A DNA stretch of 64,000 nucleotides from an uncultured Candidatus Saccharibacteria bacterium (GCA_964406895.1 CAYOTK010000004.1:26016-90015); one strand, 5' to 3'; counted from the stretch's first letter, positions 1,237 through 62,417 are shown. Notes: generated by a model from the sequence alone, not told the origin. Translations and numbers: made by a program.

Positions 1237-1370
1237 CAATTCAAAGGAATGGCAACTTCCTGATCCTTGATGGACAAATCGTTGCAGAAGCTTCGGAGAA
1301 GTGCTTCGGTTTTACTTCTCCACTTTATTCAACTCACGAATGGTTCGTGGGTTGACTGAGAAAGGTTTTC

Positions 1371-1871: not shown

Positions 1872-2118
1872 CCGACCACTTTACGAACTCAAAATCAGAG
1901 CAACTTTTGTCCTTAGACTCCCCGAACCAGTTCGCGCTGAATTCGTGGAAATCGCGAGGGCAAAGTCTCCTTCGGCGAGTTTTGATCTCGCCCAGTTCGC
2001 CGCGCGAGCACGCGGAATTGTTAGTACGGAAGTCATTGCGATCGCAAAAGCTACGCGTTGGCTCTCAGTGATTCGCCGTGATCATGGCGATCAAGTGTTT
2101 GAACAGATTGTCGCTTAA
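1864..2118 (+). CDS. Ribbon-helix-helix (Arc/MetJ-like) DNA-binding protein
   Basis: The ATG at 1864 overlaps the HD gene stop (ATGGATAA), suggesting translational coupling. N-terminus MDNRPLYELKIRATFVLRLPEPVRAEFVEIARA matches the Arc-type beta-strand/helix signature (..R.P..L...L...A). It is 84 aa. Confidence 0.45.
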   Translation: MDNRPLYELKIRATFVLRLPEPVRAEFVEIARAKSPSASFDLAQFAARARGIVSTEVIAIAKATRWLSVIRRDHGDQVFEQIVA

Positions 2119-2136
2119 CGTGGTAACGGGGGTTTT

Positions 2137-2352
2137 ATGCCAAAGAAAAAAAAGATGCCCAACCGACGGATAAAGGTAAAAGGGTTCACATTGGAAGTAG
2201 TTTCTCCGAAATGTCCTTTTTCCGACGCTACGACGGAGGAGCGAGCAAAGGATCAGGCAGAAATGATTGCCAATGGAGGAATTCATCCTGCATGGTTCTC
2301 GGTTACAGCCGAAGACGTCCAACGCGAGTTAGATAAGGACAAGCTCAATTAG
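2137..2352 (+). CDS. Hypothetical small basic protein
   Basis: 71-aa ORF starting 19 nt after the RHH gene, same strand, with GC-rich codon usage. No recognisable motif. Confidence 0.3.
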   Translation: MPKKKKMPNRRIKVKGFTLEVVSPKCPFSDATTEERAKDQAEMIANGGIHPAWFSVTAEDVQRELDKDKLN

Positions 2353-2387
2353 GAGCACATCGCGCCACAACGCGAACAATTTCAATC

Positions 2388-2420
2388 GGCGAGTTTTTGT
2401 GGAAACTCGCCCACTTTTTT
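2388..2420 (+). terminator. Rho-independent terminator followed by an AT-rich promoter-like patch (to ~2470)
   Basis: GGCGAGUUU / AAACUCGCC stem followed by CACUUUUUU. Then cctataatatttgtttttttaaaattgtagg forms an AT-rich patch inside the otherwise GC-rich island, upstream of the MoxR gene. Confidence 0.45.
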
Positions 2421-2530
2421 GAGCCTATAATATTTGTTTTTTTAAAATTGTAGGCTCTTTGAGTAAACGCCACAAAAATGGCGACGGCTTCAAATAGGTG
2501 CGCCGGAATAAGCACCAGTGGAGAATCACA

Positions 2531-3742
2531 ATGAGTGATATCGTCCAATTGGGGATTGATCTCGCCCCCAAGGTGTCCGCTGTAATGACGGATGTCCTAA
2601 CGCGAAATCTCGGCCGTGAGGCAATTGTGCGGGCAACAATGCTCGCGCTCGTTTCGGGCAGACCGGCGTTTTTCCTGGGCAGTCCTGGGATCAACAAAAC
2701 CGGGACGGTGCAGGACATCGCCCGTCGGGTTGACGGTGCGGTGTTTTTTGACGCGCTCATGCCGACCATCGTGTCGGTTGAGCAACTGTTGGTGGAGAGC
2801 ACCTCCATCGTGGAGTCCCCGATAACTGATGGAGGTAAATCCATCAGCACCAGCGACAAGCTTGGGCGAGCAGCAAACGCGCACATTCTGTTCGCCGACG
2901 AGATTTGGAAAGCAGAACCTCGAGTTTTGCAGACCGTTTTGGACTTGGCGAAAGGCGACGGCGTTCGGCACGAGGGACGGATGATTAAAACCCCGCTTCT
3001 CGCTTTTGTGGCGGCCAGCAATGAGCTGCCGGATTCTGAAGGAAACCTCGGAGCACTGTGGTCACGAATGACCATTCGAGCCGAGGTGAAGTCCCTTGAC
3101 CGGGCCGGAAAAAAAAGCCTGGTCGCGACGCGATTGAACCGGCAACAGGCCGGCAAGTCAGCGCCGACAGGGGCGACTCTGACACTCGCTGAAGTGGAAA
3201 CGCTTCGCGAGGTTCGGCCGTTCGTGGAGGTTGGTGACGATATCGTCGAGATTGTACTCGACCTTTACCAATCGCTCCTTGACGGGGACAACGCCGGGTT
3301 CGCCTGGCTATGGGCCGACGACCGACGGTTCGGTCGTTGCATTGACGTTTTGCAGGCCAGTGCACTCCTTGACGGGAGAGCGCGAGTCGGCAAGCAGGAC
3401 CTTCGGGTTCTGGAGTTCTTGCTCTGGGACACCCCCGAGCAGATCCCCGTCGTCAAAAGCAAAATCGCCCCGCTCTGTCGGACACCACTGTCCGACGCGC
3501 AGGAGCTCGTAGACACACTCTTCGCTCCAGCGGGAGTGGTGGCGGAAGCGCTGGCTGGCGATCGGAACAAGATTGTTCCGGCCATCACCCAGTTTGAGGA
3601 GGCTGAGAAGGAACTCAGCCGGCTCGCGGGTGAGGCGAGTGGAACGGAAAAGGAGCAGATCGGCACGCTCCTCGCCAAAATTGCCGAGGAAAAACAGAAC
3701 GCGGTGGCGATCATACTTGGCGCCAAGCGTTGGAAAAAGTAG
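2531..3742 (+). CDS. MoxR-like AAA+ ATPase with atypical Walker A
   Basis: Start taken at the second ATG (MSDIVQLG), with GGAGA 8 nt upstream. Walker A is LGSPGINKTG (N replaces the conserved second G). Walker B is ILFADEIWKA. The MoxR sensor region DEI.KA.P.....LL....E......G......P..F..ASNELP parallels DEINRA...TQ.ALLEAM.E..V......-....F.VIATQNP. Confidence 0.7.
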   Translation: MSDIVQLGIDLAPKVSAVMTDVLTRNLGREAIVRATMLALVSGRPAFFLGSPGINKTGTVQDIARRVDGAVFFDALMPTIVSVEQLLVESTSIVESPITDGGKSISTSDKLGRAANAHILFADEIWKAEPRVLQTVLDLAKGDGVRHEGRMIKTPLLAFVAASNELPDSEGNLGALWSRMTIRAEVKSLDRAGKKSLVATRLNRQQAGKSAPTGATLTLAEVETLREVRPFVEVGDDIVEIVLDLYQSLLDGDNAGFAWLWADDRRFGRCIDVLQASALLDGRARVGKQDLRVLEFLLWDTPEQIPVVKSKIAPLCRTPLSDAQELVDTLFAPAGVVAEALAGDRNKIVPAITQFEEAEKELSRLAGEASGTEKEQIGTLLAKIAEEKQNAVAIILGAKRWKK

Positions 3743-3754
3743 AAAGGATCGGAA

Positions 3755-5491
3755 ATGCAAACGAAAGCCAGCCCGCTCATGCGGCAGGAGTTGCAGAAAC
3801 TCCTGGTCACGGATGCGGACGCTTTCACGGCGCTCCGCTTCCTGCGTCACCGCGAGCGCACCCCAGCGCTTTCGGAATTGGAAAACCAAGGAGGAAACGA
3901 GGTGCCCGGTTTTGCCGGAGCGCTTTGTGACCTCTACCACTCACTGTGGACGGAGACACCCAAGGTCAAGGAAGAAATTCCGGCTGACCGGCGGTTCTTC
4001 GCGGAGATTCTTCGGGGGGCGCTGGCATCGTCAGCGTTTGATGGTCTCCACGCGCAGACACAGTACTCAGACATCAAGTCGGTACTCGGCACCCTTTCCA
4101 TGGGTGATGCAGTGCTGGCAACGATGTCTCCGGAGGAAAAGAAAAATCTCCAAGACACTGCTAGTGCGCAGAAAACAGCGGATGAAGCCGAGGACGAGGC
4201 CAAACAGGCCGAGAACGAAGCTGATTCTGCTGAAGCACTCGCCCAGATGGTGGAGCAATCCGCCGGACAGGGCGAGAGCAGTGAGGGCGGACAAGAATCA
4301 TCCGGCGATCCTTCGGGAGAAGCCGAGGGTGGTTCTGGAGCGCCCAAATCAGGCAGTCCTTCAGGATCGCCAAGTGGTGGTTCACACGGAGCAGTTAGCG
4401 GAATGACGCCCGATGAAGCGCAGGCACTTGCGAACGAACTCGCTCGACAAGCGAGGGAGGCGCGTGCCAAAGCCAACTCGGCACGCGAAACTGCGAACAG
4501 CGCCAAAGAGGTCGCCGAATCCATCGCCAACCAACTTCTGGGGCAACCCGGAAGCGAGGAGGCGATGGAGAGAGCGAAAGATCTGGCGCGTCGTGGATTA
4601 GCCGCTGCTCAAAAGGCCCAAGCGAAGGTTGAGGAAGTATCCAAGACCATTGACTCGTGGGGGCTTGAGGAAGGCGAGCTCGTCCAGATGGGCATTCCGG
4701 AGGCCATGGGGCTTCTAGAAAAAATGCGCCAGAGCACGGCGCTCAAGAAGTTTGCTCAACTCCTGGGCCGAATCAAAAAGATTGCCGCTCGAAAAGCGGC
4801 GTCCGATGATAAAGCCGATGGAGTGCGAGTCACGAAGCCGGAAACGGGTCATGATATCAAAAGAGCGCTTCCGAGGGAGCTCACTGCTCTCTCGCACCCA
4901 TCGCTTCGTTTCGGCGCACTGACGCGCTGGAGCCGAGGAGAACTCGCTCTTCGGGGCGAGGAATCAAAGAGGAAATTGGGCGAGGGGCCGGTCGTGGTCT
5001 GCGAAGACTCGTCAGGCTCTATGGACGGGGTTAAGCAACAGTGGGCAAAGGCTGTAGTTTTAGCACTGGCCCATTACGCAAAGCTTCGTAACCGATCGTT
5101 CGCGTGGATCATGTTTGACACTGCTATCCAGCGGAGTCGCATTTACACTCGCGGGCGATTAACGCCCAAGGACCTTTTGGAAATCGCCGAGTCACGCTCA
5201 GGAGGTGGGACGAATTTTGAAATCCCCCTTCGCGAAGCCGTCAAAGTGATTCGTGGTGCTGGCCTTAAGAAAGCCGACATTGCGTTCATCACCGACGGGG
5301 ATTGCGCGATTTCGGACGAATTCGTTCGGGAGTTTGGTGGGGTCAAGAAGGCATTGGAAGTCAACGTGTTCGCAGTTCTCTGCGATGTTGGCCATACTGC
5401 CGAGGCGACCATTGCAAAATTCTCGGACAGAATTGAACAGGCTTCATCTTTCAACGAGGATGAAGCGGAACAATTTTTCCAAAAACTCTGA
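3755..5491 (+). CDS. von Willebrand factor A (vWA) domain protein with acidic/coiled-coil N-terminal region
   Basis: Starts 12 nt after MoxR, with AAAGGA upstream. The C-terminal vWA domain has a complete MIDAS: VVVCEDSSGSMDG (DxSxS), SRSGGGTNF (T) and AFITDGD (D). The N-terminal ~380 aa are Ala/Glu/Ser/Gly-rich low-complexity and coiled-coil. Confidence 0.75.
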   Translation: MQTKASPLMRQELQKLLVTDADAFTALRFLRHRERTPALSELENQGGNEVPGFAGALCDLYHSLWTETPKVKEEIPADRRFFAEILRGALASSAFDGLHAQTQYSDIKSVLGTLSMGDAVLATMSPEEKKNLQDTASAQKTADEAEDEAKQAENEADSAEALAQMVEQSAGQGESSEGGQESSGDPSGEAEGGSGAPKSGSPSGSPSGGSHGAVSGMTPDEAQALANELARQAREARAKANSARETANSAKEVAESIANQLLGQPGSEEAMERAKDLARRGLAAAQKAQAKVEEVSKTIDSWGLEEGELVQMGIPEAMGLLEKMRQSTALKKFAQLLGRIKKIAARKAASDDKADGVRVTKPETGHDIKRALPRELTALSHPSLRFGALTRWSRGELALRGEESKRKLGEGPVVVCEDSSGSMDGVKQQWAKAVVLALAHYAKLRNRSFAWIMFDTAIQRSRIYTRGRLTPKDLLEIAESRSGGGTNFEIPLREAVKVIRGAGLKKADIAFITDGDCAISDEFVREFGGVKKALEVNVFAVLCDVGHTAEATIAKFSDRIEQASSFNEDEAEQFFQKL

Positions 5492-5502
5492 AAGAGGAAA
5501 TT

Positions 5503-6156
5503 ATGGAAAATATCGTTGTAACGCTTCGAGCTGACCGGGGCAACAAGTTCGATGAAGACGGTCAGTGTATCGGGACCCATGAAAGGTCAATCGTCTTCAT
5601 GCCACGCGAGGTCAAGCCTGACCAAGTTGTCCGCGTCCGACTCATACCGATCATGGATCGAATGACGGGGAAAGAAAGAGTGGACAAAGGTGGCAGAGTT
5701 ATGTACCGCGCCGAACTCGCACCAGCGGAACTGCCGAGGAAATGCGAGGAAGACATTGCAAGGCAAGCAAAAGCCTTGCGGCAAGGCAAACCCTTTCCGA
5801 AGGATCAAGGCGAGGCACTCGCCAAATCCATATTTGGTAAGCGATTGGAACGTACTGACCACAAGTGGTACTACTTTTTCGCTGATGCCATCTTGGGGTC
5901 GCGGTTTTCACCCGCTGCCCTATTGATCTTAGAGGGGATGCCGATGTCTTCTGGTAGCTCATACGATGAGCTTATGGGGTGGTTGATCGGTAAAACTCGC
6001 TGGGGTTACAACTGGTACCACTTCCGAGAATCAGGAAAGATCGGAAAGGATGAGGTTCCGGAGTTTCCAGAAATAGAGCTCCGGACACTTATCGCGCGCC
6101 TTGAAAAAGGCGAATGGGTCATCGCAGACCTCTTGGTTAAGGAGGAACCGCGATGA
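5503..6156 (+). CDS. Hypothetical protein with TRAM-like (OB-fold) N-terminus; candidate vWA-MoxR-associated partner
   Basis: Starts 11 nt after the vWA gene. N-terminus VVTLRADRGNKFDEDGQCIGTHERSIVFMPREVKPDQVVRVRLIPI resembles the TRAM pattern (G.G.....g.vvFV....PGE.V.v.I). The rest is unassigned. Confidence 0.4.
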   Translation: MENIVVTLRADRGNKFDEDGQCIGTHERSIVFMPREVKPDQVVRVRLIPIMDRMTGKERVDKGGRVMYRAELAPAELPRKCEEDIARQAKALRQGKPFPKDQGEALAKSIFGKRLERTDHKWYYFFADAILGSRFSPAALLILEGMPMSSGSSYDELMGWLIGKTRWGYNWYHFRESGKIGKDEVPEFPEIELRTLIARLEKGEWVIADLLVKEEPR

Positions 6157-6191
6157 AAGGTTTTTGGTGCTGCAACACCAGTGGTTAAACC

Positions 6192-6235
6192 GGACGAATT
6201 TTTGCAGAAATTCGTCCACTTTATTCAATTCATAA
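6192..6235 (+). terminator. Hairpin after the TRAM-like gene (possible terminator)
   Basis: GGACGAAUUU / AAAUUCGUCC 10-bp stem, followed by ACUUUAUUCAAUUC, which is only moderately U-rich. Confidence 0.35.
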
Positions 6236-6327
6236 CTTCGGTTACGGATTGATAGAGTTTCAGCTCGAACCGCGTCCGCAGGCGCAACAATTTGCGGAAA
6301 AATTGCCCTTGAAAGGAGGGCTAACAG

Positions 6328-6774
6328 ATGAATTACAAAATCATCCCCGGATCCGTCGGGGTCCGGAAGTCGTTTCAGGTTACCTGCGGACTGCGCGTCG
6401 GGTACGACGCAGCCGCGGTGACTCACACCGGCGAGGAGGCCGTCGAGTCCGTCCTCGAACAATTGAAGTTCCGTGCGGCTGCGGGACTGCCGTACCTAAC
6501 CGGTACAATCACAACCGGAGAGGTCGTGTATGCATGGTCGGATGGGCCGGGCAAGGCCGGCGGCGGGCACGAGCCCGTCATCCGGTACGAGGGAGAAGTC
6601 AACCCCCTGTACAACAAGAATCTTCTCGAGAATCACGACGAGGTCGTCGCGATCTTGAACGAGCTCGGCATCGCCCTCGGAGCGGCGCTCGGGCAAACGC
6701 GGATCTACCTGGCCTACGACGGCCAGACGTGGATCCTCGAGGCGGAGAAGGCGGTTACCCCGACGGGTAACTAA
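6328..6774 (+). CDS. Hypothetical protein
   Basis: 148-aa ORF on the same strand within the island, with GGAGGG upstream. No recognisable motif. Confidence 0.35.
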   Translation: MNYKIIPGSVGVRKSFQVTCGLRVGYDAAAVTHTGEEAVESVLEQLKFRAAAGLPYLTGTITTGEVVYAWSDGPGKAGGGHEPVIRYEGEVNPLYNKNLLENHDEVVAILNELGIALGAALGQTRIYLAYDGQTWILEAEKAVTPTGN

Positions 6775-7005
6775 TTTCTCCAAAGGTTGTGTGAACCTTC
6801 AAAACATTCTGCGTCCCGCGTGGCGCAAAAAAATTTGGTTAACGGTGAGTGTATGCGGACACCCACAAAACTTTCAGCACCGGTCGGGTTGATCGGTGCT
6901 GGACTTTATTGAGTCCGTCCGCTTTTAGCGGGTTGATTCAAAAAGTTAAAGACAGCGACGAGAGTCGCCCGAGCCAGTCGGGTACTGGCATGAAAGGATA
7001 GCGGA

Positions 7006-8715
7006 ATGAAAAATATCCGCCGAGTAGTGGTTTGCGGACCCCCGCATTCGGGAAAGTCTGTGTTCCTAGCCAATCTCCAACGGCTATTGCCGGTTGAGCA
7101 TCACATGCTCATTTTCGGCGCTCCCGACGGTGAGTGGCATTGGAGCAACGAGGCCAACCAGAGCCTCGTCAAAAACCTGCGGGAAAAGAAAGGCTTCTCG
7201 CAGGACTGGTGCCGTCAAATCGTAACAGCGATCCAGAGTGCCGATCAGAAATTGGTACTCGTGGATACGGGTGGCAAGCGATTGCCACCGAACGATGAGA
7301 TCTTCTCGTCGTGCGATGGTTTCATCATTATTTCCTCATCGCCGGAGGAAATGATTGAGTGGCGGAAGTTCGGCGAGAGTTTCGGATGCCAGTGCTTGGC
7401 CGAGCTTGACTCGGTTTTGCATGGAACGTCAGAGCTCTATCCAGACCGCAAGGACGGCATCATCCGCGGTCAGATATGCGGTCTCGAGCGCGGGAAGACC
7501 ATTGAGTCGCCTGTGATGGACGCGGTGGCCAGTCGGCTTTGCGAAGTCATCAAAGCTAACGCTGAAATGACCAAGGCCGAACTTCTCGCCAACATCAATG
7601 GCGTGAAGTTGGTAGACCATCTGGGAATCACAGATCGCTCGGATCCGTATCTCGGAGTGAGGCCCTGGCACACGGCTCCTGCACTCAAACTCACGGCCGT
7701 GGCGCGCCGACTGGAAATCGTGCGAATCTGGAATGTCCGCACAAGTTTCCTGTCCTGCGCCTTCGCCTCGATGCTCCCAGGAAAAGTCCAGCTCTTCGGC
7801 GTGTCCGAGGGGTATGTGGAATTACCTGAAGTCGTTCCGGCTGGGAACGCTTCCGGCGATGGGGTGGAATGGGAAGTTACCGAACTGGCCGAGTATACCT
7901 TAGTGGAATTCCGCAAAACACGATTCTTCACTAAGGAACTGCTGGCGAGCGTGGTACCGCCCGTAGTCAATTCTCGCAAGGGGGTTGTGCTGTCTACGGA
8001 CGGTCCGCCCATCTGGCTAGACGCGACGATCGCAAGGTCGTATGCAAAAGCTGGCGCACCATGGATTGCTGTCTTCGTTCCGGTTGAGTCCGGACGAGTC
8101 CAGCCGTCTTTGGACGGCCAGAAATGGAGTGATGTGCACCCACCAGACGGACCGTGCGTGATAATTTACGGTCCGGAAAATCGGCTGGGAGAAATCATTC
8201 CCGTGCCGATTGCCCTGCTTAAATGGCAAGGGGGTGGACGTAAGTGGCGACTCGGGTCGGGCGAGCCAGTCGTGGATCGACAGAACAGCCACCTTGCCAC
8301 GCACGGCACGGTTTTGCCGTTCGTGGGTGAAGCCTTGCTCCAGATTCAATCCGGAGGACAAGACTTCATCGCCGAAGAAGTAGGTTTTGGCGAAGCCATC
8401 GGGCAGACGATTTGTGTCGCCACCCGCGAGGATGACGACATCGTTTTCGCCCAGCGGCCAAACCGAGCCGGACTCACACGGTTCGTGAAAGGTCGCGAGC
8501 CGGAGTCGTGCTCGACGGTTGTGGTTTGTCTAAAGCGAGCGCGGGAGGGCGGATACATCCTCCTTACTGCGTACATTGGTAGACGCACACCGGCCGAACC
8601 GTGGGACATGGAATGGGCAACGGATCAGTCCGTGCCTTTCTGGAATTCCCATGCTCTGATTTGGGGGCACGAATCAACAATACCAGGAACTGAAACGAAG
8701 GTTTGTTCTTGGTGA
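7006..8715 (+). CDS. P-loop GTPase-like protein, paralog B
   Basis: G1 is VVVCGPPHSGKS and G3-like is LVLVDTGGK. The N-terminal domain and a C-terminal block (GPPIWLDATIARSYAKAGAPWIAVFVPVESGRVQ...GQKWSDVH) are paralogous to ORF 1..1236. An additional ~170-aa C-terminal extension is present. Confidence 0.65.
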   Translation: MKNIRRVVVCGPPHSGKSVFLANLQRLLPVEHHMLIFGAPDGEWHWSNEANQSLVKNLREKKGFSQDWCRQIVTAIQSADQKLVLVDTGGKRLPPNDEIFSSCDGFIIISSSPEEMIEWRKFGESFGCQCLAELDSVLHGTSELYPDRKDGIIRGQICGLERGKTIESPVMDAVASRLCEVIKANAEMTKAELLANINGVKLVDHLGITDRSDPYLGVRPWHTAPALKLTAVARRLEIVRIWNVRTSFLSCAFASMLPGKVQLFGVSEGYVELPEVVPAGNASGDGVEWEVTELAEYTLVEFRKTRFFTKELLASVVPPVVNSRKGVVLSTDGPPIWLDATIARSYAKAGAPWIAVFVPVESGRVQPSLDGQKWSDVHPPDGPCVIIYGPENRLGEIIPVPIALLKWQGGGRKWRLGSGEPVVDRQNSHLATHGTVLPFVGEALLQIQSGGQDFIAEEVGFGEAIGQTICVATREDDDIVFAQRPNRAGLTRFVKGREPESCSTVVVCLKRAREGGYILLTAYIGRRTPAEPWDMEWATDQSVPFWNSHALIWGHESTIPGTETKVCSW

Positions 8716-9295
8716 AAAAAGTGTTAGAAAGTGCACCCAAAAAACTTTCCTCCGCTACAGAGCGTTGTGGCAAACATACGCATATGTAATTGTTCTTTTG
8801 GTCAACGGTAGTTCTGATGCGTCAGGGTTACCACAACAAAATTCCCAGCACCGCCTTGGTCGGTGGCGCTGGACTCAATTGAGTTCATGATTTTAGAGGA
8901 TCGTGAATTCATAGAGTATTACGCAGTGAAATAAGCATTAAAACAAAAAGAAGGCCCCATAAAGCTATAGGCCAGCATGACGGAATCAGATCAGGAAAAA
9001 GTGCGAGTGATTGCAAAATCTCTCTCCTCTAACCCTTCGACAAGCTCAGGATTATCCCGAGCAAAGTCGAGGGACAAACACGATTTCTTGGTTTGTCATC
9101 CAGTCGTTATGACCTGTAGCTTTATGGGGCTTTTTCATAATTCAAGACAATATACATTGCCACAATGTCAACATGGTTATTAGGTTGCTTAAAATATGGC
9201 TTATTATATAATTGATGCATGGTTCGAAACTCGATCCACCTTCACACTAGTGAATGGTAGGCCGAGACCATTTATTAGCATTAACAATAAATATA

Positions 9296-9568
9296 ATGAA
9301 CAAAGCAAGCATTGTAGAAGCAGTTCATGCAGTTCTCGGTGGAACAAAGGTTCAGGCCGAGCAAGCAGTAGAAGCAGTGATCAACAGTGTCATTGATTCT
9401 CTCAAGAAGGGTGAGGAGGTCTCAATCGCAGGTCTCGGCATCTTCTCGGTCAAACAGCGTGCAGCACGCGAGGCTCGTAACCCAAGGACAGGTGAATCCA
9501 TAAAGGTTCCTGCCATGAAGGTTCCTAAGTTCCGCGCCGCAAAGGCATTGAAGGATGCAGTAAAATAA
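9296..9568 (+). CDS. hup: HU family nucleoid DNA-binding protein
   Basis: MNKASIVEAVHAVLGGTKVQAEQAVEAVINSVIDSLKKGEEVSIAGLGIFSVKQRAAREARNPRTGESIKVPAMKVPKFRAAKALKDAV matches the HU/IHF signature (GFG.F.....R.GRNP.TGE...IPA...P.F.AGK.LKD). Start taken at the internal ATG (MNKAS). Confidence 0.85.
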   Translation: MNKASIVEAVHAVLGGTKVQAEQAVEAVINSVIDSLKKGEEVSIAGLGIFSVKQRAAREARNPRTGESIKVPAMKVPKFRAAKALKDAVK

Positions 9569-9680: not shown

Positions 9681-10433
9681 ATGGACATATCGCCAGACAG
9701 AAAACTTGTAACCAGTATGGAAATCGGCCCAGAAAGATTACCGAAAATCGAAGTCGACGTTTATAAAGACGCGGTAAATTACTGGGGTGCATGTAATCAT
9801 TCGATTCAATCTAAAGACTGGACGACTAGTATGGATCCCGATGTTGTTGAAAAAATTCGTGGCAAAACCAGAGAAGAGGCTGATAAGTTCCTCATCCCAT
9901 ATTTACAAGAAAAACATTTAGAAAAAACGCTCGAAATAGAGCGGTTTAAACAATTTGCACTCAAAGAGTTTAGCGAAAAATTTGAGACTGCATGTAATAA
10001 ACTTAAGCAGGTAATGTGTGGATATGAGATTTATAGAAATGATTTTACAATATTTATCACAACAATAAGTCGTCAACCCTACAACAAGGAAAACGGCTGG
10101 ATTTGGATGGGTATCAATAATACAGATCCGATACGCACATTTTTGCATGAATTATGTCATTTTCAATTTATTCATTATTGGCAAGAAAATACAGATTCGC
10201 CAGTAAGCAAACTTAGTCCTGAAGAATTCAATTATTTGAAAGAATCCTTAACAATGATTCTTGATGATGATTTCTTCCCTATTATACGAGCAGTAGACAG
10301 GGGCTATGAAGCACACCAAAGTTTTCGCGCCGTCTTAAAAGAATTCTGGTCAAAAAACAAAGATTTCAACGCGCTCGTTGATTATGCACTTAAAAGACTG
10401 CCGGAATTTATTTCAAAACCACAAAAAAATTAG
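9681..10433 (+). CDS. Hypothetical protein with HExxH motif (possible zinc metallopeptidase-like)
   Basis: 250-aa ORF with AT-rich codon usage. Contains FLHELCHFQF (HExxH). No further family assignment possible by eye. Confidence 0.5.
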   Translation: MDISPDRKLVTSMEIGPERLPKIEVDVYKDAVNYWGACNHSIQSKDWTTSMDPDVVEKIRGKTREEADKFLIPYLQEKHLEKTLEIERFKQFALKEFSEKFETACNKLKQVMCGYEIYRNDFTIFITTISRQPYNKENGWIWMGINNTDPIRTFLHELCHFQFIHYWQENTDSPVSKLSPEEFNYLKESLTMILDDDFFPIIRAVDRGYEAHQSFRAVLKEFWSKNKDFNALVDYALKRLPEFISKPQKN

Positions 10434-11039: not shown

Positions 11040-11214
11040 AAGTTATATTTCTACTACTCACTTTTTCTACAAAATTTATTACAATACATTCATGACCTAA
11101 TAAATCTCTTATGAGAATGATCTGAAAAAATCTTAACACCGGAACAAATCAGTAGTGCCTGCACCGAGCGAGGAACAAACCCTCATCTTAGGCACAAACT
11201 TCAACGAATCGAGG

Positions 11215-11285
11215 TGCGGGCAGGGAGAATCGAACTCCCGTCTACACATTGGAAGTGTGTTATTCTACCACTAAACCATGCCCGC
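11215..11285 (-). tRNA. tRNA-Gly (anticodon UCC)
   Basis: The reverse complement reads GCGGGCAUGGUUUAGUGGUAGAAUAACACACUUCCAAUGUGUAGACGGGAGUUCGAUUCUCCCUGCCCGCA. It has a 7-bp acceptor, a GUUU/GAAU D-stem, an ACACA/UGUGU anticodon stem with loop CUUCCAA, and T-arm GGGAG-UUCGAUU-CUCCC. CC is encoded after the discriminator but the final A is not. Confidence 0.8.
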
Positions 11286-11363
11286 AATATTCAGTTATTT
11301 AAGAACAAAGTCAATACTAGCAATTATTTTTCGATATAACAAGACACTAATTTATCCAAAAAA

Positions 11364-11804
11364 TTATTTTTTATTTTCGTTTTCACTCTTTCCATCAACA
11401 ATCACCTCTTTGATCTCATCAATCTCCTTTTTCATCTCCTTGATTGTTGTTCTGATCTGCCCTATCTGCATTTCTTCCTCTTCTATTTCCTTCTCAGTTT
11501 TGTCCGTAACCTTCTTTTGCCCCTTCAAACCACTAATCAATATGGTGTCCCCTATAAAATAAGAAACAAACAATCCGGTAGCAAGCAAAACAATCAACAC
11601 CAAGATAAGACTTATAGGTTCATAGAATATGATGCCCCACCACCCTCCTTTGGCCTGAAGTATGTCGGCAGTATGCCAAACACCTCTCCAAAACAAAACA
11701 ATAGCCGTACCCCCTATCAACGTATAAAGAATAGGATAACGACTGAGGTGAACCCTGATCACATCCTCCAATTTATCAAAGAAATTTACTACTCTTTTTA
11801 TCAT
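11364..11804 (-). CDS. Hypothetical small membrane protein with Lys/Glu-rich C-terminus
   Basis: 146-aa ORF with two hydrophobic segments (LIGGTAIVLFW, ISLILVLIVLLATGLFV). AT-rich codon usage consistent with the host. Confidence 0.4.
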   Translation of the reverse strand: MIKRVVNFFDKLEDVIRVHLSRYPILYTLIGGTAIVLFWRGVWHTADILQAKGGWWGIIFYEPISLILVLIVLLATGLFVSYFIGDTILISGLKGQKKVTDKTEKEIEEEEMQIGQIRTTIKEMKKEIDEIKEVIVDGKSENENKK

Positions 11805-11831
11805 TTTTATGATTAATTTACTTAATATTCT

Positions 11832-11907
11832 TGGTCGGAGCGCCGGGATTCGAACCCGGAGTCACCTGTACCCAAAACAGGTATGTTAGCCGTTACACCA
11901 CGCTCCG
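11832..11907 (-). tRNA. tRNA-Pro (anticodon UGG), CCA encoded
   Basis: The reverse complement reads CGGAGCGUGGUGUAACGGCUAACAUACCUGUUUUGGGUACAGGUGACUCCGGGUUCGAAUCCCGGCGCUCCGACCA. Anticodon loop is UUUGGGU, T-arm is CCGGG-UUCGAAU-CCCGG, and the 3' CCA is genomically encoded. Confidence 0.8.
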
Positions 11908-11949
11908 TATGCAATGATATTAGCATAATATATCGAAATTGCACACGAA

Positions 11950-12348
11950 TCACAAAATAATATCCTGAATCCAATTGATATTCCCTGCCCTATTATCAGA
12001 ATCGATGTGAATTGCCAAAACGTGAAAATAAAATCTGATCTCATCACTTATTTTATTTTCATTCAAGTATGTTTCTATCATTCTGCGAATATGCTTCACC
12101 TTGAAACCATGAACATTCTCTTCCGGCCTATGGATGTCTGTTACATTTCCTATATTAAAAGTCGTGCTTTTTACCTCGAAGAAATGTATAGCACCATCCT
12201 TGAAACCAACAATATCTAATTCTCCCCATTTACGTTGGTAATTTCTAGCTATAATAGAAAAATTATTTTTCTTCAAGAAATCGCAAGCAATATCTTCTCC
12301 AATCTTTCCAAAGTATTTATTTTGTTTTTTGTTTGCATTATTTAACAT
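11950..12348 (-). CDS. YraN/UPF0102 family endonuclease-like protein
   Basis: 132-aa protein with GELDIVGFKDGAIHFFEVKS, matching the UPF0102 core (GE.DI.....L.FVEVK.R). Confidence 0.6.
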   Translation of the reverse strand: MLNNANKKQNKYFGKIGEDIACDFLKKNNFSIIARNYQRKWGELDIVGFKDGAIHFFEVKSTTFNIGNVTDIHRPEENVHGFKVKHIRRMIETYLNENKISDEIRFYFHVLAIHIDSDNRAGNINWIQDIIL

Positions 12349-12692
12349 AAATGTCCTGACTTTTAAACTTGAATAATAATAGTACGGCCCAAATTAGCCA
12401 CATTCACAGTATTCACAAATAATAGGACCAAAAAACACGAATATTAGCCATATTTCCTGTCTTTTATCACCACTATTAACAGACTTATCCACAGTTTGTC
12501 CTTTCAGCCCACGAATTTAAGCCGTATTTATCCGACTTATATGTGTATAAAGTACTGTCGTTTATACTTTACAATTCGTACTAATATTCCGCTCTAATAA
12601 AGCATTGTCTAACAAAAAACTACACACTTATTGTGCCTGCACCGAGCGAGGTGCTAAATCGAAATTATTTACTAATCACGAAAAAATTGAGG

Positions 12693-12763
12693 TGCGGGTA
12701 GGGAGAATCGAACTCCCACCTCGTCCTTGGCAAGGACGCGTCCTACCACTAAACGATACCCGC
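12693..12763 (-). tRNA. tRNA-Gly (anticodon GCC)
   Basis: The reverse complement reads GCGGGUAUCGUUUAGUGGUAGGACGCGUCCUUGCCAAGGACGAGGUGGGAGUUCGAUUCUCCCUACCCGCA. Anticodon loop is UUGCCAA. It is a paralog of the tRNA-Gly(UCC) and shares part of its 3' flank. Confidence 0.8.
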
Positions 12764-13001
12764 GGATTTCAACAAAAGGCATTATAGCCTATAATTTCAA
12801 AATTTGAAAGTTTTTACAAAACACTCTTGCTTCGCCAAAGGCTTCGCAAGACGAGTGCGTTTTTATAACTGTCCTACTACGCTCCTCACTCCGTTCGGAG
12901 CTTCGTAGGACTGCTTCGCGAAAGTGTATTATTGAGAATGCAATTAAACAAGTACTTGTACTGCGAAGCGACCCCAGCGATTAGCTGGGGTCGCGAAGCA
13001 G

Positions 13002-13075
13002 TACGCCCGGCAGGACTCGAACCTGCAACCCCTTGGTTCGAAGCCAAGTACTCTATCCAATTGAGCTACGGGCGC
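13002..13075 (-). tRNA. tRNA-Arg (anticodon UCG)
   Basis: The reverse complement reads GCGCCCGUAGCUCAAUUGGAUAGAGUACUUGGCUUCGAACCAAGGGGUUGCAGGUUCGAGUCCUGCCGGGCGUA. Anticodon loop is CUUCGAA, T-arm is GCAGG-UUCGAGU-CCUGC, with a G1-U72 wobble. CCA is not encoded. Confidence 0.7.
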
Positions 13076-17966: not shown

Positions 17967-18134
17967 AAACAAAGCAGGTACAGCATGTACATACTAGTCG
18001 TTGCGAAAACTCACTCCTTAAATTTCTAAGAAAAAGCCTCACGAGGTCATCACGGTTCGGCTTTTTCTAAGAAATTTATAGTCGTTCAAACAGTTCGCAA
18101 CGACTAGTATGTACATGCTGTACCTGCTTTGTTT
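17967..18134. repeat. Palindromic element copy 1: perfect 41-bp inverted repeats flanking an 86-bp conserved core
   Basis: aaacaaagcaggtacagcatgtacatactagtcgttgcgaa at 17967-18007 is the exact reverse complement of 18094-18134. The core at 18008-18093 has its own internal inverted repeat (aaatttctaagaaaaagcc / ggctttttctaagaaattt) and is shared with 20813-20898 and, in reverse orientation, 62079-62167. Confidence 0.7.
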
Positions 18135-18261
18135 TCATCGAACACCACACCCTGCACATGAATTTTTGTGAGCAATCCAAATGAGGTGGTTACGCATGAC
18201 TATTGCATACGCACTTGTTTGCTCACAAAAATTCATGTGCAGGGTGTGGCGTGAAGAAAAA

Positions 18262-19209
18262 CTATTTCTTCTTATTATGAAACTTCTTATGAATATTCCT
18301 AAGCTCACTGTCTGTAACGTGAGTATAAATCTGAGTGGTTCCAATATTTGCATGACCAAGAAGCATTTGCACAGAACGCAAATCGGCACCATTTCTGAGT
18401 AAGTCAGTAGCGAAACTATGACGTATGACGTGTGGAGTAACTTTCTTCGAAATTCCAGCCTTAATAGCATAGTGTTTTATGATTCTTTCAACAGATCTTG
18501 TCGTCAACCTCGAAGCCTCCATATTGTTTTTCTTATTCGAAATCTGAACAAACAAAGCTTCTTCCATGTCATCTCTTTTGTCGAGATATTGCTTCAACCA
18601 TTTTTTGGCTTCATCAGAAAGAAAAACTACCCTTATCTTATCTCCTTTACCTCTGACAGAAAGCTCATCCAGCTTCATGTTGATTTCACGGGGCAGGGCA
18701 CAGAGCTCTGAAACACGCAAACCAGTCGAAAAAAGAAGTTCCATGATGGTTCGATCACGAAGGCCTCTCAATTTCGTTGTGTCGGGTGCATCCAATAATC
18801 GGCCTAATTCCTCGATTGTTATAAGATCCAGCGACCTTTCAGGAACTTTTGCCAATTCTATTCTCTCTGGCGGTAGTGATTTCACGCTCATTCTGGCAAG
18901 ATATTTGAGAAATGCTCTAAGAGCAATGAGATAGTAATTCTGAGTCTTCTTCTTCATGGTACCTGAAGCTAATCCTTTTGTTTTGCTTCCTTCTTGTCGA
19001 TTTAACCATAACCTAAACTCCCTAACCACATTATCTGTTATGTCATTTGGTGATTTCACCTTGGTAAATGATATGAAACGCGTCAAATATCGATCATAAT
19101 TTTCAACAGTCTTGAGTCCGCGACCTTTCTCTATCTCTATGTACTCCAAAAACTGTTGTTTCATGTCTTGAATATTGTGCGACATGAATACATTGTAGCA
19201 ATTATCCAC
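18262..19209 (-). CDS. xerC: Tyrosine site-specific recombinase, XerC/XerD family
   Basis: C-terminal catalytic motifs HVIRHSFATDLLRNGADLRSVQMLLGHANIGTTQIYTHV (R..H..R..LLGH...Y). N-terminal SAM-like domain (FLEYIEIEKGRGLKTVENYDRYL). Start could be any of the first three ATGs. Confidence 0.8.
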   Translation of the reverse strand: MDNCYNVFMSHNIQDMKQQFLEYIEIEKGRGLKTVENYDRYLTRFISFTKVKSPNDITDNVVREFRLWLNRQEGSKTKGLASGTMKKKTQNYYLIALRAFLKYLARMSVKSLPPERIELAKVPERSLDLITIEELGRLLDAPDTTKLRGLRDRTIMELLFSTGLRVSELCALPREINMKLDELSVRGKGDKIRVVFLSDEAKKWLKQYLDKRDDMEEALFVQISNKKNNMEASRLTTRSVERIIKHYAIKAGISKKVTPHVIRHSFATDLLRNGADLRSVQMLLGHANIGTTQIYTHVTDSELRNIHKKFHNKKK

Positions 19210-20722: not shown

Positions 20723-20774
20723 TATTTAAGCCCGCGTGAATTTATAAATCACCATTTTTAGTGTTGGGTGAATG

Positions 20775-20936
20775 TTTTTCAGCAGTACATGTGTGCTTTT
20801 GTTCGTTGCGAAAACTCACTCCTTAAATTTCTAAGAAAAAGCTTTACGAGGTCATCACGGTTCGGCTTTTTATAAGAAATTTATAGTCGTTCAAACAGTT
20901 CGCAACGAACAAAAGCACACATGTACTGCTGAAAAA
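20775..20936. repeat. Palindromic element copy 2: perfect 38-bp inverted repeats around the same 86-bp core
   Basis: tttttcagcagtacatgtgtgcttttgttcgttgcgaa at 20775-20812 is the exact reverse complement of 20899-20936. The core at 20813-20898 is ~95% identical to 18008-18093. The arm sequences differ from copy 1 but are again perfectly self-complementary. Confidence 0.7.
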
Positions 20937-21153
20937 CTCGTACCTTAGTAAGAAAGAATTTGATTCTCTGGAAAAAAATAAACTATCAATTTCTCCAGAA
21001 TCGTGTTAAATTACAAACATTAATATTAATAATTCGCCTGCAGATAGGCAGGTTTATCCTCCACAGCTTTTCCACATAAAAGCAAAAGAGGGAATCTGAA
21101 ATCTGAAGGCGAATAAGGTCGGACCTCTAAAAGGTCGGACCTCAAAGAAAAAA

Positions 21154-54329: not shown

Positions 54330-56003
54330 TTAATCTTGTAAAGAAATGACTCTTTCTAACTCTTCCATAGAGGTCATTCCTTGAAGAATTTTCAATATAC
54401 CATCTTGTTTCATGGTTAGTATTCCTTGGCCTTTTGCTGCTTGCCAAATTTCTCTTTCGCTAGGGTTGAGCTCTACGGCATTTTCTATTTTGTCATCTGT
54501 AAGTATTGCTTCATATATACCTGTTCTGCCTTTGTATCCAATCTGGTTGCATTTGTCACAACCTACGGGAGTGTATATTTTTGTCGTATTTGCAGGAATG
54601 TAATTCTTGTCTTCTATCTCTGATAATGTTTGATCGATTTTGTTTTTTGTTTCTCCCTCGGCCAATACTTCTTTCTTGCAGAATTGACATAGTTTCCTAA
54701 CCAGTCTCTGTGCCATTGCTATTCGAAGTGCAGAAGTTATAACTTTTGAGTTTATTCCTAGATCAATAAGTCTTGGAAATGTGCCTGCCGCATCGTTCGT
54801 GTGTAGGGTAGAGAATACAAGGTGTCCTGTAAGAGCTGAGTTTATGGCTATACTTGCTGTTTCATTGTCTCGTATTTCACCTATCATGATAATGTCGGGA
54901 TCTTGTCTAACTGTTGCTCTCAATCCTTCTGCGAAGTTGTAGCCTTTCTCGTTTGTTTGTGTCTGTACGATTCCTGGAAGATGATATTCTATCGGGTCTT
55001 CTATTGTTACTATCTTGATTCCGGGGGTTTGAACTCTCTTTAGGAATGCGTATAGAGTGGTGGTTTTTCCTGATCCTGTTGGGCCTGTGGTCAGTATCAT
55101 GCCGTCAGGTCTGTCCATCTCTCTTTTCAATATATTAAGAAGTTTTTCGTTTATGCCCAAATCTTCCAATGGAACATTGATTGACTTTGGGTTAAGGATT
55201 CTCATAACGACTGATTCGTTGTACGCTCCAGGCAATATGGAAACACGAACCTCTACTTCTCCTGACGGTAGTCTTATGCTGAATCTACCATCCTGAGAAT
55301 CTTTCTTTATGTTTAATTTCATTCCTGAAATAAGCTTTATTCGTGAAAGAAGTAGGTTGTATGTTTCGGTGTCGAGTTTGGTTACTTCTGTTAATACTCC
55401 ATCCAATCTGTATCTGAGTTCGACATATGTTTCTTCCGGTTCCATATGAATATCAGAAGCGTCTATAGACAATGCTCCCGCTACTAATGTTTCTAGTATT
55501 CTAGATACTCTGTATGCTTTTTTTCCTGAAACCGAGGAATTCAGTATGTCGACTATTGCGGGTAGGTTTTTGGCTTGTTCTATGATTGTAGCCACTTCTT
55601 CATTTGATATTTCGAGAGATCCTGCTCGGCTTTCGTATGCAAAAGAAAGATCGTTATACATTTTCCATGCTTTCTCAAGGCTCTGTGTTGAGGCTATGTT
55701 GATTTCGATAATATAACCTTTCTCTTCGAGACCCTTCACCACCTCTAGTGTTTTTTCATCGTCTGGATTGCGTGCTGCTATTTTGAGTTTTTTGTCAGAA
55801 ATCGCATATGCTGCCATGAGTCTTTCTCTGGCTGTTTTCTCTTCTATAAGTCTCAGTGCGTCTGTGTTTATCGATATCGCTAGTAGGTTGACGTAATTCA
55901 CGCCGTATTTCGATGATAAAATTTGCACCAAGTCTTCTTCTTCGCGATGCAGAAGATCGTCTATTTTTCTTTTTTGCTTATCTTCGTCGAATTGAACTGT
56001 CAT
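54330..56003 (-). CDS. pilB: Type IV pilus / type II secretion assembly ATPase PilB/GspE
   Basis: Walker A TGPTGSGKTTTLYA, Asp box, Walker B MIGEIRD, His box, and tetracysteine CQFC...CDKC. N-terminal GspE_N-like domain. 557 aa. Confidence 0.85.
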   Translation of the reverse strand: MTVQFDEDKQKRKIDDLLHREEEDLVQILSSKYGVNYVNLLAISINTDALRLIEEKTARERLMAAYAISDKKLKIAARNPDDEKTLEVVKGLEEKGYIIEINIASTQSLEKAWKMYNDLSFAYESRAGSLEISNEEVATIIEQAKNLPAIVDILNSSVSGKKAYRVSRILETLVAGALSIDASDIHMEPEETYVELRYRLDGVLTEVTKLDTETYNLLLSRIKLISGMKLNIKKDSQDGRFSIRLPSGEVEVRVSILPGAYNESVVMRILNPKSINVPLEDLGINEKLLNILKREMDRPDGMILTTGPTGSGKTTTLYAFLKRVQTPGIKIVTIEDPIEYHLPGIVQTQTNEKGYNFAEGLRATVRQDPDIIMIGEIRDNETASIAINSALTGHLVFSTLHTNDAAGTFPRLIDLGINSKVITSALRIAMAQRLVRKLCQFCKKEVLAEGETKNKIDQTLSEIEDKNYIPANTTKIYTPVGCDKCNQIGYKGRTGIYEAILTDDKIENAVELNPSEREIWQAAKGQGILTMKQDGILKILQGMTSMEELERVISLQD

Positions 56004-56096
56004 ATGACTATGATTATAACAAGAAAGAATTGTCTGCGCATGTTGCTGTGTGATTTATCAAAAGCAGTCACACGCAATTTTGGACATGTTTTGATA

Positions 56097-56225
56097 ACAA
56101 AGAGGGGTTTTGTGTGCTTTGGGACATGCGGGAAATTTTCTGCAGAAAATTTCCCTTATCCTCGGCATTTTTCTGCTGAAAAATGCCTCCGGACATGTCC
56201 CAAAGCACACAAAACCCCTCTTTGT
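56097..56225. repeat. Nested perfect palindrome in the pilB/tsaE divergent region
   Basis: 56097-56128 is the exact reverse complement of 56194-56225 (32 bp). The inner segment contains a 26-bp perfect palindrome GGGAAATTTTCTGCAGAAAATTTCCC and a near-palindrome GGCATTTTTCTGCTGAAAAATGCC. Confidence 0.6.
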
Positions 56226-56269
56226 GGTGCAAACATGGCATTATTTCTCAATTGTATTATCATTAAGTC

Positions 56270-56755
56270 ATGAAAACTCACGTTACTAATTCACTGGAAG
56301 AAACTGAATCCTTGGCTCGTCTTTGGCTCGAGAATGTTTCGGCGAAATATGCTGGTATTGATAGCGCTCTTGTTGTGACTCTTTCTGGTCATATCGGAGC
56401 GGGCAAGACCGCTTTCGTGAATATGGTTGCCAAGATTTGTGGCGTTGAGGAGTCTGTGACAAGTCCAACTTTCGTTATCATGAAAATATATGAGTTGAAA
56501 GGTGGGGTGCGAAAGAGCGGGGAAGCGCCGGAAGTTCCAAATAATTGGAAGCGCCTGGTTCATATAGATGCATATCGCCTAGAAAAAGCCGAAGAATTCG
56601 AAATTGTTGGTTTGGAACAGCTGGTCGCGGACAAAAATAATTTGATTATGATCGAATGGCCAGAGAATGTTGCGGAGGCGCTCGCAGGTATTGAGCCTTT
56701 GGAAAAGATCAATTTCACTGTGATGGGTGAAAAGTCTAGGAGTGTGGAGTTTTAG
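56270..56755 (+). CDS. tsaE: tRNA threonylcarbamoyladenosine biosynthesis protein TsaE (YjeE ATPase)
   Basis: P-loop LSGHIGAGKTAFV and SPTFVIM motif. 161 aa. Confidence 0.75.
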   Translation: MKTHVTNSLEETESLARLWLENVSAKYAGIDSALVVTLSGHIGAGKTAFVNMVAKICGVEESVTSPTFVIMKIYELKGGVRKSGEAPEVPNNWKRLVHIDAYRLEKAEEFEIVGLEQLVADKNNLIMIEWPENVAEALAGIEPLEKINFTVMGEKSRSVEF

Positions 56756-60862: not shown

Positions 60863-61024
60863 GAATAAAATTATAGCAGAATAGTGTCTTACTACGCTCG
60901 CTACGCGAGCTTCGTAGGACTGCTTTCCTGCTCCGCCAAAGGCTACGCAGGACAAGCGCGTTTTATGCATTATTGTGCCTGCACTGCGAAGCAACCCCAG
61001 CGATTAGCTGGGGTTGCGAGGCAG

Positions 61025-61098
61025 TGCGCCCAGTTGGATTCGAACCAACGACCCACTCCTTAAAAGGGAGTTGCTCTACCAGGCTGAGCTATGGGCGC
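61025..61098 (-). tRNA. tRNA-Lys (anticodon UUU)
   Basis: The reverse complement reads GCGCCCAUAGCUCAGCCUGGUAGAGCAACUCCCUUUUAAGGAGUGGGUCGUUGGUUCGAAUCCAACUGGGCGCA. Anticodon stem is ACUCC/GGAGU with loop CUUUUAA. CCA is not encoded. Confidence 0.8.
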
Positions 61099-62078: not shown

Positions 62079-62167
62079 TGCAGAGCAACTGTTTGAGCGA
62101 GTATAAATTTCTTGGAAAAAGCCGAACCGTGATGACCTCGTGAGGCTTTTTCCTAGAAATTTAACGA
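62079..62167. repeat. Palindromic element core, copy 3 (reverse orientation, without perfect outer arms)
   Basis: ctgtttgagcgagtataaatttcttggaaaaagccgaaccgtgatgacctcgtgaggctttttcctagaaatttaacgagcgagtt is ~85% identical to the reverse complement of 18008-18093. Confidence 0.6.
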
Positions 62168-62417
62168 GCGAGTTTTGTCGAGGACGATAATACATCATGC
62201 CTAGGGTTTCTTTTAATAAAGCTCCCGCCGGTTTTGGCCGGCGGGGTGAGGGTTCTTTCAAGACCTCCATGGACGCACTGGTCTCGATGCCCTTTTTTTC
62301 GCTCGTCTGATTTGAACTAGAAGCGCTTTAAGGGCTTTGAACTCTACTTTGATTCGTATGGGCATCAAATCCTCCTTGTTGAATTTATAACATCTTACAT
62401 CAAAAACAAAAAAACAC

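Follow-up and report, generated by a model that had tools for sequence, protein, structure and literature searches.

The palindrome at positions 56097-56225 of the 64,000-nt stretch of DNA analysed here (GCA_964406895.1, CAYOTK010000004.1:26016-90015; hereafter the window) is real and is one copy of an apparently undescribed family of elements in Paceibacteria-type Patescibacteria (CPR), which we call T-hairpins or family A. Its copies share a three-helix structure in which every helix covaries, pairing follows Watson-Crick rules on both strands, the core is under selection, and the arms diverge between lineages in mirrored fashion. The reading that we prefer, at a probability of roughly 0.45, is that these structured intergenic DNA elements act as folded DNA; the element would be REP/BIME-like structured DNA, its core a fold recognised by a protein, and its arms homogenised at the DNA level.

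Structure and genomic setting of the palindrome

The 32-nt arms of the palindrome are 100% complementary, and complementarity reaches 44 nt at 91% when the outer extensions are included (56085-56128 / 56194-56237). Between them come first a perfect 26-bp palindrome, which lacks a spacer and has CTGCAG at its centre, and then a second hairpin, whose perfect 10-bp stem carries the loop TGCT. The predicted fold of either strand is a T-shaped three-way junction (Table 1). DNA folding energies of the two strands were -59.2 and -60.3 kcal/mol (z = -15 to -17; equalled by no shuffle), and RNA parameters returned the same T-shaped structure as DNA parameters. The nested architecture given in the preliminary description, comprising the 32-nt arms, the 26-bp inner palindrome, and the second hairpin, was recovered in full from its coordinates, and its placement between the divergent genes pilB and tsaE was correct. 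The recurrent motif mentioned there corresponds to GGACATG, which occurs four times within 56082-56200, at 56082, 56122, and 56191 on the + strand and at 56194 on the - strand; these are 4 of the 12 copies in the 64-kb window, in the whole of which 6.4 would be expected, and two of the four are mirror images made by the arms.

Perfect inverted repeats with a spacer of up to 160 nt were compared between the window and 30 dinucleotide shuffles of it. The longest repeat in a shuffle had arms of 12-17 nt, against arms of 41, 39, 32, and 31 nt for the longest repeats of the window. Independent support for the arms comes from a separate assembly, in which two short-read contigs (L001, L003) have arms identical to those of the window and end exactly at them.

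Table 1. Parts of the T-hairpin between pilB and tsaE and of its surroundings, with positions in the window
Feature	Position	Strand	Remarks
PilB-type ATPase (PF00437)	54330-56003	-	flanks palindrome
Predicted extended -10 of pilB, TGTTATAAT	56013-56021	-	ends 9 nt before ATG at 56003; outside element
Outer left-arm extension, imperfect	56085-56096		8/12 positions complementary to 56226-56237
P1 left arm, 32 nt	56097-56128		perfect complement of 56194-56225; lineage-specific sequence (W allele)
Conserved 65-nt family core	56129-56193	+	+ is the orientation of model R1
P2, 26-bp perfect palindrome, GGGAAATTTTCTGCAGAAAATTTCCC	56130-56155		11-13-bp stem, covarying across family; self-complementary loop TGCA at 56141-56144
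Junction J2/3, TTATCCTC	56156-56163	+	family consensus CTAATCCTC
P3a	56159-56161 / 56191-56193		TCC pairs with GGA
P3b hairpin, GGCATTTTTC-TGCT-GAAAAATGCC	56164-56187	+	highest sequence conservation among family helices
3' junction TCCGGA, conserved	56188-56193	+	family consensus TGCGGA; includes 3' half of P3a
P1 right arm, 32 nt	56194-56225		perfect complement of left arm; W-right allele, also in L002, L004/L005
Outer right-arm extension, imperfect	56226-56237		abuts predicted tsaE -35
Predicted tsaE promoter	56235-56263	+	-35 ATGGCA, 17-nt spacer, -10 TATCAT; consensus match only; outside element
TsaE (PF02367)	56270-56755	+	flanks palindrome; divergent from pilB

Here and in relatives, the start codons of both pilB and tsaE are preceded at a distance of 6-9 nt by a -10-like box, that of pilB recurring 6-9 nt before the ATG in L023, L034, L049, L059, and L018. 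This position suggests that both mRNAs are probably leaderless or nearly so and that the element lies upstream of both promoters, in which case neither mRNA should contain it. A relative whose TsaE is 83% identical (L018) has an intergenic region of 104 nt that lacks the element and keeps the same proximal promoter sequences. In the preferred reading, the element would be dispensable for the pilB and tsaE promoters.

An operator or other cis-regulatory site through which a dimeric regulator would control the divergent pilB and tsaE promoters, one of the possibilities raised in the preliminary description, would suit a location between two promoters with the right end against the predicted tsaE -35 box, as well as the fact that 3 of ~10 independent loci of the family lie in type IV pilus clusters. 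We consider it very improbable because the stems covary freely, so that complementarity alone is kept rather than a half-site sequence, because the same core also stands beside unrelated genes (ligA, folD, msrA, recA, trxB), and because the promoters of L018 are the same without the element. A transcription terminator or insulator hairpin, the former also suggested earlier, or an invertible, phase-variable promoter segment is scarcely credible. The stem is very stable and some copies lie shortly after a stop codon, and perfect inverted repeats around a short segment beside a pilus gene do recall invertons, but both flanking genes point away from the element, no consistent T-run exists in the family, and a terminator scan at the locus gave one weak internal match only; likewise, the orientation of the core relative to pilB is fixed, the spacer, at 62-89 nt, is below the length that site-specific inversion needs and contains no promoter, and no recombinase gene was found adjoining the element. 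Among the options listed at the outset, a foldback element or a cruciform/hairpin structure comes closest.

Distribution of the family

The preliminary description overlooked that the inner 65 nt, as the comparisons indicate, are a conserved and widely distributed module, so that the sequence is not unique to the locus. A core of ~65 nt recurs in Paceibacteria/Taylorbacteria-like genomes, including upstream of pilB in several lineages, where related GTDB genomes hold two copies (L023, L026) and two diverged forms (L034, L059), all four with unrelated arms and with diverged, structurally equivalent cores. A pattern made of P3 and the junction, TCCTCNGNANTTTTNTGCTNAAAANTNC, matched 11 metagenome contigs (10 distinct), every one of them T-shaped, with a near-identical core and unrelated arms having perfect runs of 19-32 nt. 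These copies lie after ligA, after folD, in the gap between msrA and an unknown gene, upstream of recA and of trxB, and in pilC/pilin-like clusters, and the recA-linked contig is also Paceibacterota/Taylorbacteria-like. The exact core 24-mer GGAAATTTTCTGCAGAAAATTTCC gave no match in the genome contigs because the P2 stem is variable. A covariance model (R1) recovered all copies at 87-114 bits.

Every copy is intergenic, some lie 16-64 nt past a stop codon, and orientation relative to the neighbouring genes is mixed. The P1 arms of each copy are 28-40 bp long and near-perfect, are separated by a spacer of 62-89 nt, and are unrelated in sequence between loci; the innermost 3-9 bp are common to subsets of copies, and the remaining 25-35 bp per arm are unique. 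In the 70-nt flanks of 15 copies we found no shared promoter, terminator, or T-run and no target-site duplication, and one 58-nt tract of flank and outer arm had no second copy among the compared loci. At the gathering thresholds of Rfam 15, only tRNAs passed in the window, and the E-value mode added no more than generic hairpin resemblances to models of miRNA precursors, which scored far under the threshold. Searches of viral, phage, and plasmid collections with the family A P3 pattern, the 26-mer of the family B core (see below), and the whole element returned no matches, nor did exact 20-22-mers in IMG/VR, a weak negative for arms as spacer-like guides, one segment each having been taken from the window arm and two family B arms.

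Copy number in this analysis amounts to one clear copy in 64 kb and to the 11 contigs of the strict-pattern metagenome scan. A filter-free search of the window with model R1 gave two marginal extras, 6168-6265 and 18229-18326. The first, a ~23-bit match in a G+C-rich island, has an intact P2-like hairpin (CGGACGAATTTTTGCAGAAATTCGTCC) much like that of L069 and no clear P3 or P1, and it may be a decayed copy of a T-element. The type IV pilus clusters in which copies occur (pilB; pilC, pilin-like) are L067:7755-11158, L070:5198-8015, and window 54330-56003, a possible enrichment with p ~0.01 if such genes make up ~5% of neighbours, by a rough post hoc estimate. At L033:7053-7147, a perfect inverted repeat of 33 nt around a 29-nt spacer contains in its arm CATGTCCCTC, which likewise adjoins the core in L023, L067, L069, and the window.

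Covariation and pairing

The structure of the element is under selection. In a covariation test over 17 distinct sequences and 40 pairs (677 pair cells), 95.4% of cells held standard pairs, 29 of the 40 pairs had double-sided changes, and compensated cells numbered 161, against 44 +/- 6 in shuffles, none of 500 of which reached that value; in slid controls, the paired cells dropped to 37-54%. Covariation is present in P1, P2, and P3, in the last of these at the closing pair and two inner pairs of P3b. Sequence varies freely in P1 and P2, and what is conserved consists of P3, the loops TGCA and TGCT, and the two junctions. The P2 loop TGCA is itself self-complementary, which makes P2 a palindrome without a spacer.

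The pair cells comprise 640 Watson-Crick pairs, 6 G·T, 12 A·C, and 19 others. Wobble pairs thus occupy ~1-2% of cells, do not exceed mismatches in frequency, and lack strand asymmetry, the difference between 12 A·C and 6 G·T not being significant. Pairing by Watson-Crick rules only is expected if both strands must pair, as in a DNA hairpin or cruciform or in transcripts of two strands, or if each arm is a template for the other; the lack of a wobble excess is unlike an RNA folded from one strand. This pattern indicates that the constraint acts at the DNA level or on both strands.

The main rival to folded DNA is a structured non-coding RNA or a read-through RNA element, in which P1 would be a processing or stabilising stalk (for instance an RNase III substrate) and P2-P3 the protein-binding part. 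Very strong covariation in all three helices together with conserved loops and junctions is a classic signature of structured RNA too, the core is under purifying selection in place, all copies are intergenic, and A·C, which is G·U on the - strand, lies slightly though not significantly above G·T; furthermore, an RNA folding from either strand would likewise be restricted to Watson-Crick pairs. Beyond covariation, the generic marks of structured RNAs were not seen: wobble pairs are rare and show no G·U strand asymmetry, the flanks hold no conserved promoter or terminator of the element's own, gene-relative orientation is mixed, no Rfam family corresponds, and at pilB-tsaE the element stands upstream of both predicted leaderless promoters. 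We therefore regard an RNA as possible though doubtful. Two further points weigh on the folded-DNA reading itself, namely that a 65-nt spacer makes classical cruciform extrusion kinetically unfavourable and that the apparent copy number is low.

Orthologous loci and evolution of the arms

The PilB relatives in GTDB belong to MAGs of Candidatus Taylorbacteria, Paceibacterota, or Parcubacteria at an identity of at most 77%, and the contigs reached through TsaE homologues share the synteny ruvB-orf-pilB<>tsaE-polA. Three allelic arm types, each self-complementary, occur at this locus: W in the window (32/32 paired), X in L072, L073, L075, L079, and L080 (27-28 perfect, 36/37 overall), and K in L008-L017 (36/38 paired). 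They differ from one another at ~22-33% of positions, and the changes are always mirrored on both arms, whereas the core at 56129-56193 is identical in the three lineages except for a loop SNP (TGCT to TACT) in the X contigs L072 and L079. Core orientation relative to pilB is constant in W, X, K, the L002/L004 hybrids, L023, and L026, and by inspection in L034 and L059. Short-read contigs of the locus terminate exactly at the arms.

Hybrid contigs have mismatched arms, X-left/W-right in L002 and K-left/W-right in L004/L005, and stem either from recombination with its breakpoint inside the core or from chimeric assembly through this shared sequence. In L002:878-1105 and L004:2122-2349, the two arm allele types meet at an identical core, and the pilB and tsaE of L004 come from different lineages, with 4-fold divergences of 0.11 to K and 0.17 to W. 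An alignment of the empty site of L018 with filled sites, bearing on a possible origin of the arms as inverted duplicates of the target flank, placed only ~8 nt (TTTTGAG) in common with the outer left arm, at a neutral-site divergence of ~50% that leaves the comparison ambiguous. Which hairpin lies upstream of pilB varies by lineage, namely a T-element, a rod-like family C element (see below), or a plain palindrome, the last exemplified by the 40-bp perfect palindrome at L047:2868-2907.

The core is under purifying selection in situ. Between W and K, the 4-fold sites of pilB and tsaE differ by 45% and the pilB third positions beside the element are just 56% identical, yet the core is identical at 65/65 positions, which implies strong selection in place and none of the decay of a dead insertion. 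Between W and X, where 4-fold divergence is only 6-12%, the arms are ~30% different. In comparisons of the window with L002 and with L072, the differences concentrate in arm tracts immediately flanking the unchanged core, 56000-56099 containing 47 of them and the genes 0-9 per 100 nt. Apart from a tract at ~56040-56128 that ends at the core, the window and L002 are ~98-99% identical, and this tract turns the left arm of the window into the exact complement of the right arm that the two share. The tract looks like the product of an arm-to-arm conversion, with the qualification that 22-nt and 16-nt insertions lying further left would be left unexplained by a single arm-copying event and that L002 is possibly chimeric, as the hybrid contigs L004/L005 could also be.

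In bacteria, imperfect inverted repeats are preferentially corrected to perfect ones by template switching (PMC5941160), a perfecting process documented as well in two further papers (PMC7202029, PMC8604942). Repeats homogenised in this way should stay self-complementary while diverging, as these arms do, at 22-33% between lineages and with mirrored changes, and quasipalindrome correction by template switching would explain the Watson-Crick-only pairing, the mirrored substitutions, and the re-perfected hybrid arms. Such homogenisation is described mainly for short repeats as a mutational process, whereas the present case has arms of 30-40 bp, a selected core, and several families. A DGR-like, adenine-specific mutagenesis of the arms was rejected on the mixed types of the W-vs-X substitutions.

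As the arms diverge by ~30% at a 4-fold divergence of 6-12% around an unchanged core, the data are also compatible with a variable paired stem that is the functional payload, with the T-core as a protein handle and both arms rewritten together. Hairpin transcripts would then be processed into ~30-bp duplex guide small RNAs (shRNA-like) with a sequence particular to each locus, or the fold would be the recognition site of a hairpin-specific nuclease, recombinase, or primase peculiar to CPR bacteria; we hold this to be distinctly improbable.

A selfish, non-autonomous mobile element (MITE- or REPIN-like), whose folded core would be read by an enzyme acting in trans and would enter hairpin loops or gain its arms later, fits the dispersal and the presence/absence pattern. 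The core lies at ~10 unrelated loci, the pilB-tsaE site is both filled and, in L018, empty, the element is present or absent among equally distant relatives, and the window core is nearer to a copy at another locus (L061) than to the pilB-locus copies L023 and L026. In the same vein, the site upstream of pilB has different hairpin families across lineages, family B cores that are 97% identical stand on unrelated arms, and an arm in L067 overlaps the end of a gene, coinciding with a C-terminal extension of 4 aa relative to the L070 homologue. Against mobility stand terminal repeats conserved over only 3-9 bp, the lack of target-site duplications, the low apparent copy number, the absence of a transposase among the 29 window ORFs scanned and of matches in the viral, phage, and plasmid collections, and orthologous copies that are undecayed, with 65/65 core identity at 45% neutral divergence and the structure kept in distant orthologues. 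A selfish mobile origin alone leaves the conservation in situ unexplained, and as a full account we judge it improbable.

Other hairpin families and window features

The likeness to the palindromes at 17967 and 20775 that had been noted earlier is one of design, the core sequences being unrelated. Those two copies of family B (17967-18134 and 20774-20937) agree at 97% over a core of 106 nt, and their perfect arms, 41 nt in the first and 39 nt in the second, are mutually unrelated; in a third copy (62087-62176, - strand), the core aligns over 90 nt at 90-93% and the arms are degenerate. Family C consists of L049:2791-2966, upstream of pilB, and L070:161-319, with a common 55-nt apex and unrelated arms. 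The suggestion of a general process maintaining long perfect hairpins is consistent with these data, at least three unrelated core families sharing a conserved apex and locus-specific, near-perfect arms. In 533 kb of related DNA there are 59 perfect inverted repeats of at least 18 nt, mostly of the family A, B, and C kinds, near-identical contigs not being collapsed in this count, and a survey of 118,019 genomes found the highest densities of perfect inverted repeats in parcubacterial phyla (PMC13155455).

The genomes with T-elements seem generally rich in palindromic repeats. Further families occur on the contigs bearing T-elements at L061:451-647 and 7237-7400, L067:1151-1242, 3846-4017, and 9857-10020, and L071:7849-7948, example arms being CCCCCTTTTTCAAAGGGGG and TTGTCATTCCCGCGAAGGCGGGAATCCAG. 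The L049 element resembles the P3 stem of family A (GGCATTTTC/GAAAATGCC) with another hairpin replacing the loop. A separate long hairpin at 18142-18252, with 34-nt arms at 97% and a 43-nt spacer, abuts both family B copy 1 and the stop of a gene for an XerC/D-like tyrosine recombinase (18262-19209, - strand).

The first ~9 kb of the window have 55% G+C, against ~38% elsewhere. This G+C-rich part (1-8900) encodes a Csx3-domain protein, an HD protein, a MoxR-like AAA ATPase, and four ORFs without a Pfam match, and it looks like an acquired island of the defence type. At its boundary (~8949-9135) lies a 190-nt imperfect hairpin, followed by a T-run and an HU gene (9254-9565). Five tRNA genes are located in 11213-13075 and at 61024-61098 (Gly-TCC, Pro-TGG, Gly-GCC, Arg-TCG, and Lys-TTT), four of them clustered on the - strand.

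Comparison with known systems

REP/BIME elements and REPINs resemble the T-hairpins in being short, intergenic, hairpin-forming, present at many loci, and long-lived, with mixed orientation and with compensatory changes by which a hairpin in ssDNA or RNA is kept (PMC3116915). Membership among the REPINs was rejected on organisation, which is the reverse of that described (PMC3116915): in REPINs the outer REP arms are conserved and the paired spacer between them varies, and in T-hairpins the apex is conserved and the arms are locus-specific and unrelated between copies. They also lack a GTAG/CGTC tag, and their copy number looks much lower; a Pfam search found no RAYT (Y1 HUH transposase) among 29 window ORFs, about half of those in the 64-kb window. 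MITEs and foldback repeats (Correia, ERIC/IRU, RUP, BOX) are similar in length (~100-170 bp), long hairpins, intergenic position, and presence/absence between relatives, but MITEs share terminal inverted repeats and direct target duplications. The T-hairpins share 3-9 bp beside the core, with no terminal repeats common to all copies and no direct repeats at any of 15 copies, so a classical MITE was rejected.

The inverted terminal repeat (ITR) of AAV-type parvoviruses, in which two small internal palindromes cap a long stem, measures ~130-145 nt and can fold from either strand. The geometry of the T-hairpin matches this T-shaped ITR, a structural analogy only; unlike the ITR, which ends a linear ssDNA genome, the element is internal to a bacterial chromosome, has a fixed orientation, and comes with no Rep/HUH gene, flip/flop variants, or sequence similarity. 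Integron attC sites are, like T-hairpins, defined by a folded single strand instead of by sequence and have variable stems, but they carry conserved outer R/L boxes (GTTRRRY) and extrahelical bases where the T-hairpin has a conserved apex and perfect stems. An attC site was rejected in that the arm ends (ACAAAG.../...CTTTGT, and those of other copies) have no RYYYAAC / GTTRRRY and neither an integron integrase nor a cassette array turned up. TIGR-Tas arrays are organised in tandem; they were rejected as a match since the T-hairpin is single and its variable parts are paired.

Discussion

In the folded-DNA reading, a T-hairpin would form as a hairpin on single-stranded DNA or as a cruciform, and its core would be the recognition module for a putative protein. 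The arms would be kept perfect by arm-to-arm copying, through template switching or through gene conversion within the palindrome, as their pattern of change suggests, so that a change in one arm would be either erased or mirrored onto the other. At pilB-tsaE, the element would be an old resident between two divergent, apparently leaderless promoters. The data are compatible both with a domesticated element and with a persistent selfish one.

A non-coding module that remains unchanged at ~45% 4-fold divergence in the tiny, gene-dense genomes of CPR bacteria is probably functional. Its arms are a clear natural case of concerted evolution in which sequence is free and complementarity near-perfect, and homogenisation of arms at the DNA level can thus be tested in population metagenomes. 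T-hairpins break short-read assemblies exactly at the arms, and the shared core may be a portable homology through which diverged strains recombine, or are chimerically assembled, at pilB. The covariance model, the search pattern, and the more than 15 instances make up a resource for the family, and the T-hairpins suggest that CPR bacteria, on which hardly any experimental genetics exists, have a structure-specific function that is as yet undescribed.
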